Position numbers and translations under genes: made by a program. Positions 2,405 through 40,230 of a DNA stretch of 64,000 nucleotides are shown one piece after another. Under the pieces are notes generated by a model. It saw only the letters and a list, made by a program, of their open reading frames with translations. It was not told where the DNA came from and ran no database searches. The DNA lies in contig OX597842.1 of assembly GCA_951406725.2 (NCBI GenBank), positions 8,990,001-9,054,000 on the forward strand, in the 5' to 3' direction. The stretch is from Octopus vulgaris. Lineage: Eukaryota. How positions within the stretch are numbered: position 1 is the first letter of the stretch; each line of letters starts with the position of its first letter.

Positions 2405-23162
<20,758 letters not shown>

Positions 23163-26703: not shown

Positions 26704-27622
26704 TATATATACATGCATATGTAGGTACAGGACACCAAAAAAATGTTGAACACAATGAAAAACGAAAACATAAAAACATAACCATGGAAACGGACATATT
26801 TTTAAACAACGAAAAAACAGGGTACAAGACATACGACACAAGGAAAATTCCCCTTCTTCAGCCGCCTCAGTTTCGTCTACTCCGCGTTTCGAAGGTAAAG
26901 GCGAGACACGACTTCGATGAAACGATCCTTCCCACAAATAAATTGAGATTTTTTGCGGTGGGGTAAAAGTGGTAACAAAAACAGGACAGTAAAAACAATA
27001 CAAGACAGTAAAAATACAAATAAAAACAGTAAACAACAGGACAAGTAGAATAACAGTAATACGAACGTTAAGGGCTGTTAAGCTGAACGAAGGAAAAATT
27101 ATTTTGAATGCGTGAGAACAACGGCTTAAGAAAGGGATAGGAAGCCGTCTACACTTGTTGAAGGCTGTGGTCAGAAAGACAGGACTTAATAATTATGATG
27201 CGCACTCTTAACCTTACTGTCTCTCTATTTTCTAACCTTACTGTACCCCTCTCGCTTCTTCATTCTTTCTGGTTTTCTCTACCATTCTCTCCCTTTCACC
27301 GTTCCCTTTCTCTTACTCCTCCTCCTCCTCCTTCTCATTGTATGTATGTATGTATATATATATATATACATATACACACACACACACACTCATACACACA
27401 CACACACACATACTCATATATATATATGAATATATGAAGGACTTCTTTCGGCTTCCGTCCACCAAATCCACTCAGAAGGCTTTGGTTGGCCCAAAGCTAT
27501 TGTAGAAGACACTTGTCCAAGGTCCAGTAGGACTGAACCCAGAACCATATGGTTGAGAAGCAAGCTTCTTACCGCACAGCCACACCTGCACCCATTATAT
27601 ATATATATATACATACACATAT

Positions 27623-27657
<35 letters not shown>

Positions 27658-27684
27658 AAATGGTAAATAATTTTTCTGTGGTTT

Positions 27685-27726
<42 letters not shown>

Positions 27727-27902
27727 CATACTTCAGCTTTTGTCATTATTTGATTCCAAGACACGTGACTTTGCTCGAAAAACAACATAACTTGAAAAAA
27801 CATTTTGAAAACTTTTTTAGCTTATAATTCGTTTTAATAAATGGTTTGTACATATTTCTCCATGTATTTTATTTGTTTTTCTACTTCAGTATTGGCTTTT
27901 AA

Positions 27903-28521
27903 ACTCTTTACTCTCTTTTACTTGTTTCAGTCATTTGACTGCGGCCATGCTGGAGCACCGCCTTTAGTCGAGCAACTCGACCCCAGGACTTATTCTTTTT
28001 GTAAGCCCAGTACTTATTCTATCGGTCTCTTTTTGCCGAACCGCTAAGTGACAGGGGACGTAAACACACCAGCATCGTTTGTCAAGCAATGCTAGGGGGA
28101 CAAACACAGACACACAAACACACACATACATATATATATACATATATATGACAGGCTTCTTTCAGTTTCCGTCTACCAAATCCACTCACAAGGCATTGGT
28201 CGGCCTGAGGCTATAGCAGAAGACACTTGCCCAAGGTGCCATGCAGTGGGACTGAACCCGGAACCATGTGGTTGGTTAGCAAGCTACTTACCACACAGCC
28301 ACTCCTGCGCCTTGTTTAAATTTTTATGCTTTCATAAATGTTTGTTGAGATTGACATAACTTTGGATAAATTATAGCATCTCATGCGCAGGAGTGGCTTT
28401 GTGGTAAGTAGCTTGCTAACCAACCACATGGTCCCGGGCAAGTGTCTTCTGCTATAGCCTCGGGCCGACCAATGCCTTGTGAGTGGATTTGGTAGACGGA
28501 AACTGAAAGAAGCCCATCGTA

Positions 28522-28560
<39 letters not shown>

Positions 28561-29284
28561 ATGTGTTTGTGTGTCTGTGTTTGTCCCTCTAGCATTGCTT
28601 TACAATCGATGCTGGTGTGTTTACGTCCCCGTTACTTAGTGGTTCGGCAAAAGAGACCGATAGAATAAGTACTGGGCTTACAAAGAAAAAGTCCTGGGGT
28701 CGAGTTGCTCGACTAAAGGCGGTGCTCCAGCATGGCCACAGTCAAATGACTGAAACAAGTAAAAGAGTAAAAGAGTATGTTTAACCCTTTAGTGTTCACA
28801 TTATTCTGCCAAAACTAATGGTTTTTTATCCAAATTGTTTTGGACTAATCATGCATTATCTTGTAGTTACCCTTTTACTCTTTTACTCTTTTACTTGTTT
28901 CAGTCATTTGACTGCGGCCATGCTGGAGCACCGCCTTTAATCGAGCAAATTGACCCTGGGACTTATTCTTTGTAAGCCCAGTACTTATTCTATCAGTCTC
29001 TTTTGCCGAACCGCTAAGTGATGGGGACGTAAACACACCAGCATCGGTTGTCAAGCAATGCTAGGGGACAAACACAGACACACAAACACACACACACATA
29101 TATATATATATACATATATACGACGGGTTTCTTTCAGTTTCCGTCTACCAAATCCACTCACAAGGCTTTGGTCGGCCCGAAGCTATAGTAGAAGACACTT
29201 GCCCAAGGTGCCACACAGTGGGACTGAACCCGGAAACATGTGGTTGGTAGACAAGCTACTTACCACACAGCCACTCCTGCGCCT
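27903..29284. mobile_element. Three young SINE family A copies in -/+/- orientation
   Basis: 27903-28311 (-), 28385-28775 (+), 28872-29284 (-). Confidence 0.9.
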
Positions 29285-29402
29285 ATGAGATTTTGATGAG
29301 GTAGCTATTTTAGGGTTGGTGTGAGAAACCAGATATGGCCAGTTTGAACTAAAACAGGCAGAATACTTTTGGCCAGATATGGTCAGTTTAAATGCTAAAG
29401 GG
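28785..29402. mobile_element. piggyBac-type MITE (TTAA TSD) interrupted by a SINE
   Basis: TTAA|CCCTTTAGTGTT ... AATGCTAAAGGG|TTAA. Confidence 0.75.
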
Positions 29403-29469
29403 TTAAGTAGATGAAGCTGTGAGTTTATCTAGGTGTATACACACCATTTGTCAACAACTAAGATATATT

Positions 29470-29721
29470 TTGTTTTTGGATTTGGTTTGCTAGATTCTTT
29501 ATATGAGTTTGTGTGTTGAAGCATATTCTGTTGTGTCTGGGGAGAGTCATTTTCTTTTTGTGCCTTATAATTTAACACACTCACCGGCAAAAATCTCCAC
29601 TTTCTTTTTTATTTTCCTACAGAAAAATAAAAAAGACGTGGAAATTTTACCAGTGAGTGTGTTAAATTATAAGGCACAAAAAGAAAATGACTCTCCCCAG
29701 ACACAACAGAATATATATATA

Positions 29722-29759
<38 letters not shown>

Positions 29760-29937
29760 TCTGGGGAGAGTCATTTTCTTTTTGTGCCTTATAATTTAAC
29801 ACACTCACTGGTAAAATTTCCACGTCTTTTTTATTTTTATTTTTATTATTTTTTTTTTAAATTTAAAAACGTGGAAATTTTACCGGTGAGTGTGTTACAT
29901 TATAAGGTACAAAAAGAAAATGACTCTCCCCAGACAC
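29470..29937. mobile_element. Double fold-back insertion with 10-bp TSD (Penelope-like repeat)
   Basis: AAGATATATT at 29460-29469 and 29938-29947; hairpins ~29523-29714 and ~29760-29937. Confidence 0.75.
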
Positions 29938-30167
29938 AAGATATATTCTCCATGACAAGACACAGTGAGTAGTTAGTTTGCTCCTCAGTTCGAATGTGCA
30001 TCAAGCATATTTGGACTGATAATAGTACTGCAATTTCACTTATCACAGCTTAGTGCTCCTGTTTTGTCATTTATTTACAGTGAGCCACCTTATAGCACTA
30101 CCAGTCATTGTATGGTGACTGGAAAAACATAAGAGATGTAATCTCTTAATTCAGCTCATAGTGACGT

Positions 30168-30510
30168 AAAGGTGCATGGCTCAGTGGTTAGAGCATCAAG
30201 CTTATGATCGTGAGGTTTTGAGCTCGAATCCTGGACTGGGCAGTGTGTTGTGTTCTTGAGCAAGACACTTTATTTCACACTGCTCCAGTTCACTCAGCTC
30301 TAGAAATAGGTTGCGACGTCACAGGTGCCAAGCTGTATTGACCCCTTTTCCTTTCCCTTGGATAACACTGGTGGCGTGGAGAGGGGAGGCTGGTATGCAT
30401 GGGCGACTGCTGGCCTTCCATAGACAACCTTGCCCAGACTTGTGCTTGGGAGGGTAACTTTCTAGGTGCAAGACCATGGTCAGTGTCATGACCGAAGGGG
30501 TTCACAAAAA
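30168..30510 (+). mobile_element. tRNA-derived SINE family F with 8-bp TSD
   Basis: TGGCTCAGTGGTTAGAGC head; AGTGACGT / AGTGTCGT flanks; fragments also at ~57600-57910 (-). Confidence 0.78.
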
Positions 30511-30515
30511 AGTGT

Positions 30516-30589
30516 CGTCTGCCTGGTGTCTGTAACTGATGAGGAGATAACTACTCTGAAATGCTAGTATCTCACAGTCTAGGCAGATG
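30516..30589 (+). ncRNA. Type I hammerhead ribozyme with extended stem I
   Basis: CGTCTGCCTGG TGT CTGTAA CTGATGA GGAG ATAACTA CTCT GAAA TGC TA GTA TC^TCACAG T CTAGGCAGATG. Confidence 0.78.
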
Positions 30590-30758
30590 GTGTGGCAAGC
30601 TGATCTAGGTGTATACACACCATTTGTCAACAAGCAAGATATATACTCCATAACAAAATGCACTGAGTAGCTTGTTCCCCAGTTCGAACATGCATCAAAC
30701 ATATTCGAACTGATAATAATTTGCAACTTTACTTATCAATGTTTAGTGTTCTCCCCTC

Positions 30759-31226
30759 TATGGTTGTGAAACATGGCCTATGAGGGTAGTCGATCAGTGA
30801 GGGCTGGGGGTGTTCAACAATGACTATCTCCGCCACATTCTTCGCTGCCAACGCATTGATCAGGTTCCTGCAGCCGATCACCTGAATCTCCGGCCCCTCC
30901 CTTCGGTGCTTCTACAACGGCGCTTAAGGTGGTTCGGTCATGCAGCCCGGCGTCCAGAGGGTGAGCCAATTCGCGATGTCCTCTTCCCGACTGGCGCAAG
31001 CGCACGGGTGGGCAGCTGAAGACCTGGGCAATGACGATAAAGGAGGACCTCTCCGAACTCTCAGGTCCGCAGGTGGTCAGTCTGCGCAGATGGAACCGCT
31101 AATGGCTTGCTTTCTCCAGTGACCTCGCACAGGACCATCGAGCGTGGGCCGCCATGGTTCATGATGCTGTTAGGACCAGAGAAGAAGCCGGGTCAACCCA
31201 CCCTGGGTCATCACAAGTACAAGTAA
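30759..31226 (+). mobile_element. 5'-truncated RTE-clade LINE
   Basis: LYGCETWP...LRHIL...QRRLRWFGHAARRPE with an in-frame stop; CAAGTA-repeat tail; GTTC(T)CCCCTC-like flanks. Confidence 0.82.
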
Positions 31227-31333
31227 GTTCCCCCTCCATAATTTCGTTATGGTGAGCCACCATATAAGGCTACCAGTCATTCATAAAGTGAAAAAGCATA
31301 AGGGAGGTAATCTCTTAATTCAGCTCATAGCAT

Positions 31334-31407
31334 TGTCTGCCTGGTATCTGTGACCAATCAGGAGATAACTATTTTGAAATGCTAGCATCTCACAGTCTAG
31401 GTAGGTG
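31334..31407 (+). ncRNA. Second hammerhead of the array, core decayed
   Basis: CTGTGA CCAATCA GGAG ATAACTA TTTT GAAA TGC TA GCA TC TCACAG; stems I and III perfect. Confidence 0.6.
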
Positions 31408-31498
31408 GCGCTGCATGCTGATTAGGTGTATACACACCATACAAGATATATTCTCTGTGACAAAACGCAGTGAGTAGCTTCTTCCACAGTTCAAACGT

Positions 31499-31862
31499 GG
31501 GATCTTTTCGGTTTGAACGGCAGTTTTTTCTAGCGGTGTCTTATGAAATTGTCACCCATAATTATGACCCTAGTATCGATCTATTGCATTTCAATCTGTT
31601 TTAGGGTTAGGGTTAGGGGTGGGGGTGGGGGGAAGGGTAACTTTTTTCTTCACAAATGTAAATAAACCCAATCTGTTTCTTAAACGAGGGACATATTCAT
31701 GTTTTCACCTCAATAGACGTCATTGATTGGTTGAAATTGCAGAAATTGAAGAAAAAAAAAAACCAACAAATATCTTACAAACTATAGAATTTTCTCAATA
31801 AAGCCAAGAGAAAAAGATGTTTTATAAACACATTCTACCAGTATACGAAGTTTAAAAGTGTT
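31499..31862. mobile_element. Non-autonomous DNA element (GGGATCTTTT terminus, internal TTAGGG x3)
   Basis: shares sequence with 4862-5105. Confidence 0.5.
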
Positions 31863-32306
31863 GGGGCTGCATCCAGAATTTTGCAAACAAAATGCAAAGA
31901 TGAAATTAATGAAGAAAAATTAATTAATCAAGGAAAGAGAACACAAGAATTTGTTATATATTGAACAATATAATTTATTTAATTTCGTTCGTTTTCTTTT
32001 AAATTTATACAGTAGAGGTTGTTGTTGATGTCTTTGACCTTGGGTCAAATAAATAAGTTGAAAATTAGGGGAGGTACTCTGAGTATGCATGTGTGTGTGG
32101 ATGCACATATATATAGATATGTATATATGTGTGTATGTGAGTGTGTGTGTGTGTGTAATTATGTGTTTATGTATGGATGCATGAGTGTATAGGTACATTT
32201 CTGATTGTGTATATGTACATAGGATCTTTTAGTTGTTAAGGTATACTAAGTAGATACATGCAACACATAAGTGCACACACATACACACACACACACATAT
32301 ATATAT

Positions 32307-32343
<37 letters not shown>

Positions 32344-33522
32344 TCATATATATGTATATATACATATACACACACATACATATACATATATGTATATATA
32401 CATATACCGATACATACATACATATATACATACATATATATATATATATATATGTAGATGCACAAATATATCTAGGAGTACATTATCTGATGTTTATAGT
32501 AGATAGTATTAGTGGCTATAGTTGTTATTGTTTAACCCTAAGTCAGTCCTGATCTCGGAGACAGACCTATGATCAAAGATGTTCCAGCTGTGACCATCCC
32601 CTCTTTTATTCGGGCATAGTGTATCTAGGACTACATTATCTAATGTGCAGTATAGGAGTTAGCATTAGCGGCTATAATTGTTGTATAGTCTCATTAGTTC
32701 TGATCCAGGAGGCCTGTGATCAAAGACGTTCCATTTGTGACCATCCCATCTTAATTTTGAATTGAGTATAATATAGTTCTAGATGCTATTTGCTGTAATC
32801 TGTTTGTCCTTCCTTCTTTCAAGTAAATACTTGGGTGGCTGCTCTTTTTAGCAATTGGAGGAACCATTGTGTAGCATCCAAAGTTATTCCTAACATGACT
32901 CTCCCTACTCTAAGGGTAGACTTTTTCTCATTCAGCAATGTTTTAAACCCTGGTATTTTGTTGCTAATATCCTTCCATAGATGTTGCCTAGGTCATTGTT
33001 GTTATTTGGCCCCGGGTCAACTCTGACTAAGCAGAACTGTTATGAAAGGCATACCACCCATGACTCACACATCAAGAATCACATTTTTAAAATTTGTTTT
33101 TCCTTTAAGACAATTGCTTGCAGGATGAAGGAAACTGGGCTGCTATTTCTAGCAAAAAAGGAAACCACGTACAGGTTCGATGTTGTCATTACTGTTTTGC
33201 AACTTCCAGCCATAGTCATCCAGGCTTTGTTAACTCAAACATAAGACAGTATCATTTGTAGGGTGATTTGACTGTTATTTCTAGCAGGCTATATGCATCA
33301 TTTCCAATGATGCATATATACATATATATGTATGTGCTTGCATGTATATCTATATATTGCATATATACATATATATGTATGTGTATATGTATATATATGT
33401 ATGTATATATATGTATATATATATATACACACACATATATATATACATACATACATATATAAATATGTATGTATGTATGTAAACCTGCCTTCGTCTTTTG
33501 TCTATTTTCATAAAGCTTCCCG

Positions 33523-33561
<39 letters not shown>

Positions 33562-34103
33562 TGCAAATATATATACATACATATATGTATGTGTTTGTAT
33601 GTATATCTATATATATATAAATACACATATATGTATGCATTTATATATGTGTGTATATATGTATATATATGCATGTGTGTGTGTGTATGTATACATGTAT
33701 GACTAAATACGTGTTACCTATATACATACATATATATGCATATACATTCACACACACACACACACATACATACATACATACAAACACTTTTGCCTCACAC
33801 ACACACACACACATATACAGCAGTACACAACCCCTTGACACAAAAATTGACCAATTCTGTCTCTCTGGACAATTAATCCGCATCAGGAAATATAATTGAA
33901 TACAATTATTAAAGAGGAAAATAGAATTATCGAAAGTAAAATAGGATTTTCAAAGTTGAAATAGAATTTTCAAAGTTGAAATAGAATTTTAAAGAAGAAA
34001 AATAGCATTACTGAAAAATATAATTATTGAGCAGAAATTTTATTATCAAAAAACAAAAAAATAAATAAATAGATAATTGTAATTCAGCAATGTTCGTGTG
34101 TGC

Positions 34104-34134
<31 letters not shown>

Positions 34135-34223
34135 TGTGCTCATAATTTGAGGAAATTTGGCTTCAATTTCTAGCACACAGGCTCGTTTGTAGGCCCATGT
34201 ACATTTGTGTGTGTGTGTGCATG

Positions 34224-34271
<48 letters not shown>

Positions 34272-35100
34272 TGTGTGTGTGTGTGGTTATGGTTTGAAGA
34301 AATTTGGTTGGTGTTTCTAGCAGACCGAACAGCCATGTACTGGCTCTCTTATAGGCTCAAGTGTGTGTGTTTGAGTGTGTGCTGGTGTGTATGTATGTAT
34401 GTGTATATGTGTGTACTTGTGTGCGTGGTTATGATTTGAAGAAGTTTTGCTGCTATTTCTAGGAGATTTAACAGCCACACACAGGCTCCCTTGTAAGTCC
34501 TTGAGCAAGTGTTTGTGTGTGCGTGAGTGTGTGTGTGTGTGCATGCATGTGCGTGTGTGTGTGGTTATGATTTGAAGAAATTTGGCTGCTATTTCTAGCA
34601 GATCGAACGGCCACACACAGGCTCCTTTGCAGGCTCATGTTCATGTGTCTAGGTGTGTTTGTGTATGTATTTGCATGTGTGTATGTATGTATGTGTGTGT
34701 GGTTATGATTTGAAATTTGGCTGCTATTTCTAGCAGATCGAACGGCCACACACAGGCTCCTTTGCAGGCTCATGTTCATGTGTCTAGGTGTGTTTGTGTA
34801 TGTATTTGCATGTGTGTATGTATGTATGTGTGTGTGGTTATGATTTGAAATTTGGCTGCTATTTCTAGCAGATCGAACGGCCACACACAGGCTCCCTTGT
34901 AGGCTCCTGTGCGTGTGTCTATGTGTGTTTGTGTATGTATTATAGGTTCATGTGCATGTGTATCTGTTGTTCTTTTTGTTTAACCCTGGGTCAAATCTGT
35001 ATTTTCTTTTTGTAAGCCAATAAGATATGATTTGAAGTAATTTGACTATTATATCTAGTAGATCTAACAGCCACAGACAGGCTTCCTCATAGACTTGTGT
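34135..35100. repeat. ~135-145-bp tandem repeat (core GGTTATGATTTGAAGAAATTTGGCTGCTATTTCTAGCAGATCGAACGGCCAC plus TG tract), about 7 units
   Basis: unit starts at ~34140, 34283, 34426, 34561, 34699, 34834 and 35025. Confidence 0.85.
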
Positions 35101-35892: not shown

Positions 35893-36857
35893 CACTTTGC
35901 CTACCATGGGAGTCACCATTGACTCCCCATGCTTAATGTACCATGGGAGTCATTGGCAACTCCCAATAATGTATTCCCAGCATACTATGCGAGTCAGTGA
36001 CTCCCCATACTGTATTCCCAGTATACCATGAGAGTCACCAGTGACTCTCCATTCTATATTCTTAATATGCCATTGGAGTCAGCAACTCCCTACACTGTTT
36101 TCCCAGCACACCATGGGAGTCAGAAATGACTCCTCATGTTATATTCTTAATATACCATGGGAGTCAGCAGTGACTCCACATGTTATATTCTTAATATACC
36201 ATAGGAGTCAACAACTCCCTAAACTATATTCCCAGCACAACATGGGAGTCAGAAGTGACTCCTCATGTTATCTTCTTAATATACCATGAGAGTCAGTGAC
36301 TCCCCATACTGTATTCCTAGCATACCATGGAAGTCACCAGTAACATCCCATGCTATATTCTTGATGTACAATACTAGTCAGTGACTCACCATACTATATT
36401 CCCAGCATGCCATGGGAGTCACCAGTGACTCATCATGTTATATCTTTAATATACCACAGGAGTCAACAACTCCCCATAGTGTATTCGCAGCATACCACGA
36501 GAGTCACTGGTGACTCCCTATTCTATATACTTAACATATGGAAGTTGCTAGTGACTCTTCATACCATATTCTTATCATACCGTGAGTACCACTAGTGACT
36601 CCTCACCATTATATACTAAATATTCCTTGGGAGTTACAAGTGACTCTCAATGGCGACGGTCTTTTATGAAGCCCCACATTTCTGTGGTTCAAACCACATT
36701 ATTTGAATTTTAGAAAAAGTACAGAACACATTTATCTTATTTCTTGGATGAACTAGAAAATATAAAAATGGTTGAATAATTAAAAACATGGAATTTATGA
36801 CAAAATCAGACAAAGCAAAAGGAATTATGGTGTGAAATAAGACTGGTAGGCCAAGTG
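35893..36857. mobile_element. piggyBac-type non-autonomous element containing a palindromic minisatellite
   Basis: TTAA|CACTTTGCCTACC ... GGTAGGCCAAGTG|TTAA (12/13 TIR match); ~18 units of GGGAGTCAC-CA-GTGACTCCC at 35904-36650. Confidence 0.82.
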
Positions 36858-38986: not shown

Positions 38987-39558
38987 CACATATATATATA
39001 TACACACATACATACATACCCTATACATACATAATGATATGTAAATGTAAGATCCAAGTGTAGGAAGTTAGTAAGCTTCAAGCAGTCTATAGAAGGTATA
39101 AAGAACAACTTTCAGGAACAAGTGGTTTATTGGTGCAGAAGGTTGCAAATGCTTCCCACATCCAAGTTCGATAAATAGAAAAAATTTGGATAAATTTTTA
39201 CCTCTTTTCAGACACATTATGATAGAGTGCCAACTAGAAAAAAAAAATCCAAACAAATTTATTTATTTAACCCAATATTTATCTTCAGGAATCATGGCAT
39301 GTCTTGCAATGAAGCAGAAAACATCACAACATTCAGATGATAAGGTATTGAAAATCACACCAATTGTTTATTACACCCTAATACAGGCAGTTTTGCTATA
39401 AGAAATTTCATTTTAAATAACCTCATCAGGTATCTTTTTAATATTTGACATTGAATAAAGATTTGCCAATTTAAAATTTTTATAAAACATATTCTTCTTT
39501 TTATTTAAAAAATACTTATATAATACACTTTATTATTGTCCATATGGCAAATTTCCCT

Positions 39559-40230
39559 ATATGGTGAAATTTCTTAAGCCAAATTTTTTTATATGGTGAA
39601 ATTTCTTAAACTGAATTTTTCTATATGGTGAAATTTCTTAAACTGAATTTTTCTATATGGTGAAATTTCTTAAACCAAATTTTTCTATATGGTGAAATTT
39701 CTTAAGCCGAATGTTTCTATAGGGTGAAATTTCTTAAACTGAATTTTTTTATATGGTGAAATTTCTTAAACAGAATTTTTCTATATCGTGAAATTTCTTA
39801 AACTGAATTTTTTTTATATGGTGAAGTTTCCTAAACTGAATTTGTCTATATCGTGAAATTTCTTAAGCTGAATTTTTTTTATATGGTGAAATTTCCTAAA
39901 CTGAATTTGTCTATATCGTGAAATTTCTTAAACCAAATTTTTCTATATGGTGAAATTTCTTAAGCCGAATGTTTCTATAGGGGGAAATTTCTTAAACTGA
40001 ATTTTTTTATATGGTGAAATTTCATAAGCTGAATTTTTCTATATGGTGAAATTTCTTAAGCCGAATTTTTCTATATGGTGAAATTTCTTAAGCCAAATTT
40101 TTCTATGTGGTGAAATTTCTTTAGCCAAATTTTTCTATATGGTGAAATTTATTAAGCCGAATGTTTCTATAAGGAGAAATTTCTTACACTGGTTTTTCCT
40201 ATATGGTGAAATTTCTTACAGCAAATTTTC
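39559..40230. repeat. 32-bp (2x16) minisatellite ATATGGTGAAATTTCT-TAARCYRAATTTTTCT, about 21 units
   Basis: directly visible. Confidence 0.92.

Follow-up and report, generated by a model that had tools for sequence, protein, structure and literature searches.

Non-LTR retrozymes of metazoans are non-coding repeats whose hammerhead cleavage and circular RNAs are known (Cervera and de la Pena 2020, PMC7229834; review PMC7761336). As far as the accessible part of the review goes, the repeats are without a motif revealing their helper, and mobilization by Penelope-like elements was proposed in 2020. A 2026 preprint argued for the same link by co-occurrence and by homology of Xenopus retrozymes to Penelope-like terminal repeats (pLTRs); its 35 genomes include no mollusc, and the accessible part of its text contains no mention of a tail, octopus, cephalopods or U4C, and no insertion footprints. 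In the available portions of the literature on EN-bearing Penelope-like elements (Frangieh 2024, PMC11167929; Arkhipova 2013, PMC3846280; Craig 2021, bioRxiv 2021.04.23.441226; Cervera 2014, PMC4209133), these elements leave an inverted, 5'-truncated arm, a tail of 30-40 bp on one end and a duplication of 8-10 bp. That pattern is attributed there to starts at two internal sites, with both strands extended, and the tail is called unique to these elements; mobilization in trans is also reported. For the giant squid, the accessible section of one paper gives a count of 235 Hammerhead_1 matches and nothing further. Our search of the literature on octopus, cephalopod or mollusc retrozymes, Penelope and U4C hammerheads found no description of the family reported here, and cephalopod or U4C examples may occur in Lunse 2017 (PMC5785218) or in the supplements of PMC7229834 and of the 2026 preprint.

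We followed up a sequence-only reading of a 64,000-nucleotide stretch of the Octopus vulgaris genome (the window; C29:8990001-9054000) and searched the 2.8-Gb genome, in 227 contigs, for copies of one locus. That reading had proposed a head-to-tail repeat of about 340-350 bp at 29407-31498, interrupted by three insertions with their own target-site duplications, and both the repeat and the insertions were borne out. All features at this locus lie on the forward strand, apart from a fold-back insertion to which no strand applies. Unit 1 begins with a piece at 29404-29469 (monomer positions 70-135), its 5' side adjoining the end of another repeat (29391-29406) and its true 5' end gone. It is broken by the fold-back (palindromic) insertion at 29470-29937, with a 10-bp duplication at 29460-29469 and 29938-29947, and resumes at 29938-30167 (monomer 127-343, then 1-8 as a duplication). 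A SINE-like insertion of 343 bp (30168-30510; 8-bp duplication with one mismatch) separates it from the first piece of unit 2 (30511-30759, monomer 1-249), in which lie hammerhead 1 and, as far as position 249, the two regions where family copies have their 3' ends. The 3' fragment of a LINE-like element follows at about 30760-31226, with broken frames, a short repeated tail and a duplication of about 11 bp, and then come the remainder of unit 2 (31229-31328, monomer 241-343) and unit 3 (31329-31499, monomer 1-182 with small deletions), which includes hammerhead 2. A fourth insertion starts at 31500-31517 and removes the 3' end of the array; the same end sequence also breaks into the unit at locus L052. 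The locus holds about 2.3 collinear units (29404-30167, 30511-31328 and 31329-31499) of 343-347 bp, the majority monomer being 343 bp, and the two hammerheads at the related locus L003 lie 347 bp apart. The array was placed correctly as to its units, and what had been overlooked is that further repeats cut both of its ends (29406, 31500).

We take the LINE-like fragment to be an RTE element from its motifs; its two open pieces gave no Pfam match. The SINE-like insertion, which is high-copy in the genome, presumably has a tRNA-like head; ARAGORN called no tRNA on it. Independent insertions gather at monomer positions of about 118-137 (L049, L061, L159, L166 and window 29470), an apparent hot spot. 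A second, more decayed family copy lies in the window at 4602-4765 on the reverse strand, with other repeats on its flanks; the family model scores it at 48.8 bits, and it is 73% identical to the majority. Tandem Repeats Finder reported arrays in the window at 34216-34941 (period 135), 35932-36605 (43/85/129) and 39550-40229 (32).

Both unit junctions had been credited with the full set of hammerhead features. We found the type I shape in both, and neither is complete. Hammerhead 1 (30511-30594) has stem I at 30530-30535/30572-30577 with one mismatch, the core CUGAUGA at 30536-30542, stem II at 30543-30546/30554-30557, GAAA at 30558-30561, a palindrome with one change and a distal helix, and is predicted to cut after 30571. 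Hammerhead 2 (31329-31412), with a predicted cut after 31389, has a perfect stem I; its core is decayed at G5 and G8 and its stem II is weakened. CUGAUGA is therefore a property of copy 1 only and an intact palindrome of copy 2 only, and the AUC cleavage triplets were confirmed with their ends at 30571 and 31389. In place of the suggested 11-bp extension of stem I, the family has a 6-bp stem I and a 16-bp distal helix. The predicted hammerhead contains an internal loop in stem I and a 7-nt loop 2, positions at which a loop 1-loop 2 contact could form. Single-copy folds were not significant against shuffled sequences (z -1.57 for copy 1 and -0.20 for copy 2), and an Rfam scan of 27000-34000 had no hammerhead among the best 150 of 184 matches. 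The proposed check with Rfam Hammerhead_1 gave no match at copy 1, where only a 13.7-bit Hammerhead_II match was obtained. The significance of the hammerhead comes from the family.

The search for other genomic copies, which the sequence-only reading had suggested, uncovered a dispersed multi-copy family. A 248-base query gave at least 67 matches at 69-100% identity from the best 40 of 692 candidates. Two adjacent exact motifs had 53 and 49 matches in the genome, five of them common to both, and none in reversed controls; by capture-recapture arithmetic on these counts there are about 450-520 hammerhead-bearing segments, probably more. We fetched 158 loci, which came to 94 distinct loci once duplicates were removed, a sample picked by our own queries and biased to long, conserved copies. 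The copies are short and dispersed on most large contigs, and no long array occurs among the 94 loci. Where a tandem-array family with younger copies had been expected, there are scattered arms of 0.2-2.1 units, and the best match to the least-decayed copy is 90%. Identity to the majority had a median of 85% (range 72-97%) over the 94 loci, and no copy exceeded 90% to the least-decayed copy among the best 40 of 750 candidates; the family is therefore old, and it appears inactive in this assembly. Three sequencing runs, labeled with three organisms and with no record of their kind, contain family contigs (577, 422 and 473), and one of these runs may be the assembly source. The 46, 10, 15, 7 and 18 contigs compared from five runs guessed to be RNA include none that spans the unit, and they bear neither way on a circle. 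Among the viral contigs searched there was no relative. Together, these results supported the window locus as an old, decayed copy of a multi-copy, non-coding type I hammerhead repeat of about 345 nt that fits the description of non-LTR retrozymes. The copy is dead, and nothing in it points to a host function.

The proposed structure was evaluated on 35 copies. Pairing was kept in 91.9% of 1048 cells, with 20 two-sided changes (0/500 shuffles reached this, a control inflated by the relatedness of the copies), compared with 28-45% in slid controls. In the palindrome of stem III, the inner pair was C-G in 27 copies, U-A in 16, U-G in five and broken in one, so that pairing was kept in 48/49; this covariation may be a single event in the master lineage. 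Helices, palindrome and the remaining core were kept across two subfamilies, with compensatory change. The hammerheads of L008 and L010 belong to a subfamily in which one more G separates core position 9 from stem II. Folded as a circle, the majority monomer reached -129.4 kcal/mol, compared with -84.2 +/- 4.6 in 60 shuffles (z -9.8, 0/60). Stems I and II and the 16-bp distal helix each had a probability above 0.9 in this fold; stem III was absent in the monomer, and two stem III palindromes paired as a duplex at a computed -13.6 kcal/mol. The pattern fits the description, in the accessible text of PMC4209133, of animal hammerheads that cut as pairs.

The consensus of the two window copies had been expected to be a complete canonical ribozyme, and this fails, the family majority having C at core position 4. 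The majority has the other canonical letters (C3, G5, A6, G8, A9, G12, A13, A14, A15.1-U16.1 and H17), and the canonical U at position 4 occurs only in some decayed copies, including window copy 1. Core positions 4-5 read CG in 21 copies, CA in 18, TG in nine and otherwise in five (n=53). The control CpG closing stem II read CG in 29, CA in 11 and TG in nine (n=49), and 15 other CpG sites had the same pattern. C4 was seen with both palindrome types and in the least-decayed copy (L151, 97%). Since positions 4-5 decay like the control CpG sites, and C4 accompanies both palindrome types and the least-decayed copy, the master core was U4C (C-C-G-A-N-G-A). The CUGAUGA of window copy 1 is most simply read as CpG deamination, common to the other two SINE-bearing copies described below. 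In the accessible part of a viroid study (Perreault 2011, PMC3088659), a U4C variant had lower activity in vitro and enough in vivo. An Rfam scan of the genome gave six hammerhead matches, none of them from this family. U4C families escape the Rfam model and canonical descriptors, and counts of animal hammerheads are therefore probably too low. The family also shows that C at core position 4 does not keep a hammerhead from being part of a successful genomic parasite. Besides this family, L115, L116 and L119 (about 1440-1840) hold a different hammerhead family, one whose stem II is long; it has inverted arms at L115, no Penelope ORF nearby and no likeness to the U4C family. Further unrelated Hammerhead_1 matches occur at L114:1501-1547 on the reverse strand and at L117 and L118 (about 1501-1550), the best at 45.5 bits.

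Mobilization by Penelope-like elements had been put forward as a guess; the insertion ends now back it, through two fixed 3' sites, head-to-head arms and duplications. The window locus is without both of its original ends, and the footprint rests on other family copies. Of 143 terminal 3' ends at the 94 loci, a first group of 67 fell within monomer positions 200-230 (median 217), and a second of 52 within 235-265 (median 253). These 119 ends, at two sites 36 nt apart, put 83% of the total within 18% of the unit; 5' ends were scattered. Head-to-head arms were present in 43 of the 94 loci, with 45 such junctions and only one tail-to-tail junction. One arm ended at each site in 28 of the 45 junctions, both at the first site in one, both at the second in none, and an arm ended elsewhere in 16. 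Independent choice of site would give about half mixed junctions, and by arithmetic 28 of 29 mixed has a probability near 3e-8. A second set of 21 loci, for which the sole selection criterion was a motif lying downstream of the cut, comprised nine inverted loci, seven with one arm at each site and 17 crossing the cut site. Insertion duplications were 9-11 bp, and duplications of at least 7 nt flanked nine of 17 mixed loci (two trivial, seven non-trivial; 17 of the 21 mixed loci then known were tested), compared with 4.4% of 272 mismatched pairs. Both arms of L155:1280-1880 have their ends at the first site, and the start of one lies 3 nt away from the predicted cut; the flanks of this locus are inverted copies of each other, not direct duplicates. 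As a positive control, an intact Penelope-like element of the same genome also has two end sites, separated by 40 nt. This element has a 781-aa ORF with RT and GIY-YIG and many copies (L089:430-5672 on C16, L090, L080). The family ends match the Penelope pattern, and we therefore infer a Penelope-type helper. The insertion ends are independent evidence on which enzyme spreads animal retrozymes, and they point to two start sites on a 345-nt RNA.

The same ends bear on whether the family is a satellite or minisatellite spread at the DNA level through unequal crossing over, its hammerhead being a fossil or a product of chance. Such an origin would account for head-to-tail units, and gene conversion could produce the mosaic units of three C29 loci described below. 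It would leave unexplained the short dispersed copies, the fixed 3' and variable 5' ends, the inversions and the duplications, as well as the want of a long array. We regard it as scarcely credible, the polarity of the ends refuting it unless the source lies in large arrays missing from the assembly.

Our preferred reading is that a dispersed, protein-free 345-nt repeat was copied in trans by a Penelope-like RT-endonuclease on a probably circular RNA, to which we give a probability of roughly 0.7. An unlikely alternative retains the enzyme and dispenses with the circle: the U4C hammerhead would be weak or vestigial, the template an uncut read-through of genomic multimers, and tandems would be renewed by template jumps or by insertion into existing copies. 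The U4C state of the master agrees with this, and in the accessible part of the work on an anole Penelope element hammerhead cleavage was dispensable for priming in vitro, so that ends of a similar kind would be left by a linear template that was never cut. Moreover, 5' ends did not pile up at the predicted cut, with three of 168 segments there and, in the 21-locus set, one end within 5 nt of it; so few ends at the cut fit a ligated circle and an uncut RNA equally. Set against the alternative is the conservation of helices, remaining core and palindrome across both subfamilies, together with the very stable fold predicted for the whole unit as a circle. The lengths of the arms point in both directions. 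They seldom reach two units (at least 1.9 units in two of the 94 loci, the longest 2.1), a point for uncut templates, yet 50 of the 94 loci have an arm of more than one unit, and repeated 5' truncation of linear templates would be expected to shorten copies.

Derived non-CpG letters were common to successive passes in the same arm in 118 of 574 cases (20.6%), to opposite arms in 221 of 1414 and to unrelated loci in 6.7%, four loci having been left out as related copies. About a third of the pairs account for the same-arm sharing: 10/32 lie above the 95th percentile of the background, and a rank test gave p 0.055. The sharing fits copying round one RNA, and an uncut multimer would do equally; some paired arms differ at subfamily sites, which favors the reading without a circle. 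Junction reads cannot discriminate a circle, because ligation at the cleavage site would be expected to restore the genomic tandem sequence.

The 40 best matches contain the SINE-unit junction of the window at three places and no others, each of them on C29. The three loci carry the same insertion at the same place in the unit within unrelated flanks; their SINEs are 94.5-95.6% identical and their units mosaic. One of them, L002, has a complete footprint with arms ending at 219 and 255, and L003 ends at 215. We dropped the idea that L002 and L003 are segmental duplicates, since their flanks are unrelated, and for the same reason L003 is not strictly an empty site. Either a SINE-carrying RNA was reinserted, or the tract spread by gene conversion between existing copies. 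The presence of this version at three unrelated sites, with mosaic units, is a further point in favor of a template that was never circular. A second SINE lies within the unit at five loci; we rejected it as another carried passenger, as its breakpoints differ each time, and read it as a hot spot.

The tail, inversions and duplications, being those of autonomous elements, might also mean that the copies are 5'-truncated pLTRs of an autonomous Penelope-like element, and the resemblance of Xenopus retrozymes to pLTRs, as given in the accessible part of the 2026 preprint, lends this some plausibility. Upstream of position 1, the arms run on into position 343 of the same 345-nt unit and never into an ORF, and tblastn with the genome's 781-aa element found no Penelope ORF in the 158 loci. 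Flanks common to these loci were only unrelated common repeats, and the hammerhead has full helices instead of the minimal pLTR form. We consider this explanation very improbable. The family itself may have originated from a pLTR. We found no pLTR homology of the kind described in Xenopus among the Penelope loci sampled, no sequence common to an autonomous pLTR among 27 GIY-YIG loci (mostly one family) or six other hammerhead loci, and no terminal repeats in the locus architectures examined. A 27-nt likeness at L073 was rejected as a trace of the helper (E 0.75, no core). The 781-aa element, which we take to be Neptune-like from its linker motif, had an alignment score of 46 with the unit, compared with 46.3 +/- 4.8 for shuffled sequence, and so has no likeness to it. 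It has an upstream 359-codon frame and a minimal hammerhead with a U3-A8 pair, inserts in TA repeats and is apparently recent. Because of its insertion in TA repeats, its own minimal hammerhead and the lack of likeness to the unit, this element is probably not the partner, and no other autonomous partner turned up among the loci sampled.

Under the preferred reading, copying by a Penelope-type enzyme in trans, a copy of more than one unit, transcribed by read-through, would yield an RNA with two hammerheads. These are predicted to cut slowly, as a pair joined via their palindromic stem III and at a rate reduced by the U4C core, and a host ligase, as in other retrozymes, would close the monomer into a strongly self-paired circle. 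The Penelope-type protein would nick both target strands, and reverse transcription would start internally on the RNA, near monomer position 217 or 253, where the 3' ends lie, with one site per strand when both are used. Copying would then cross the cleavage site and exceed one unit before stopping at variable 5' points, as the arms record, leaving a 9-11-bp duplication around either a single arm or a head-to-head pair. The copies would afterwards decay, mainly at CpG, and pick up other insertions, as observed. More tentatively, and with less than even probability, a slow, pair-only U4C hammerhead may let the circle survive long enough to be copied, inverted insertions recording the two-site starts and the RNA perhaps carrying a passenger SINE. 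If so, there would be direct genomic proof of the helper with its start sites mapped, where the case has so far been argued by co-occurrence and homology.

We compared the family with the systems outlined at the start, within the accessible parts of those sources. The viroid U4C hammerhead (PMC3088659) has the same C at core position 4; there it is one variant, whereas here it is the state of a whole genomic family, with activity predicted only. EN-bearing Penelope-like elements share with the family the two 3' ends 30-40 nt apart, the tail on one arm, the head-to-head inverted 5'-truncated arm, the 8-10-bp duplications and a hammerhead upstream of the start sites. The octopus family differs from them in being without an ORF, in having a whole unit of 345 nt and in a full-helix rather than minimal hammerhead. 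The 2026 preprint arrives at the same helper class; it suggests local tandem amplification from a pLTR, whereas the ends described here point to repeated retrotransposition of the unit. Metazoan non-LTR retrozymes (PMC7229834, PMC7761336) agree with the family in a non-coding unit (343-347 bp here, 350-390 in mussel, 330-350 in axolotl) within about 150-450 bp, GC below 50% (here 45.8%) and head-to-tail copies. They also have in common one type I hammerhead per unit with a 6-bp stem I, a 4-bp stem II and a short palindromic stem III, a strongly self-paired predicted circle, duplications above 4 bp and Penelope elements in the genome. The differences are the U4C master core, dispersed arms of 0.2-2.1 units in contrast to long arrays, and an old, apparently inactive state; cleavage and circles, known there, are predicted here. 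The fixed double 3' end with head-to-head arms is a feature of this family that is absent from the account in PMC7229834, as far as its accessible part goes. By these comparisons the family fits metazoan non-LTR retrozymes in every testable feature except the canonical core. Retrozymes as a kind are already known; judged from its genomic copies, this extinct-looking U4C family appears new, and its insertion ends are strong genomic evidence for the Penelope helper class.
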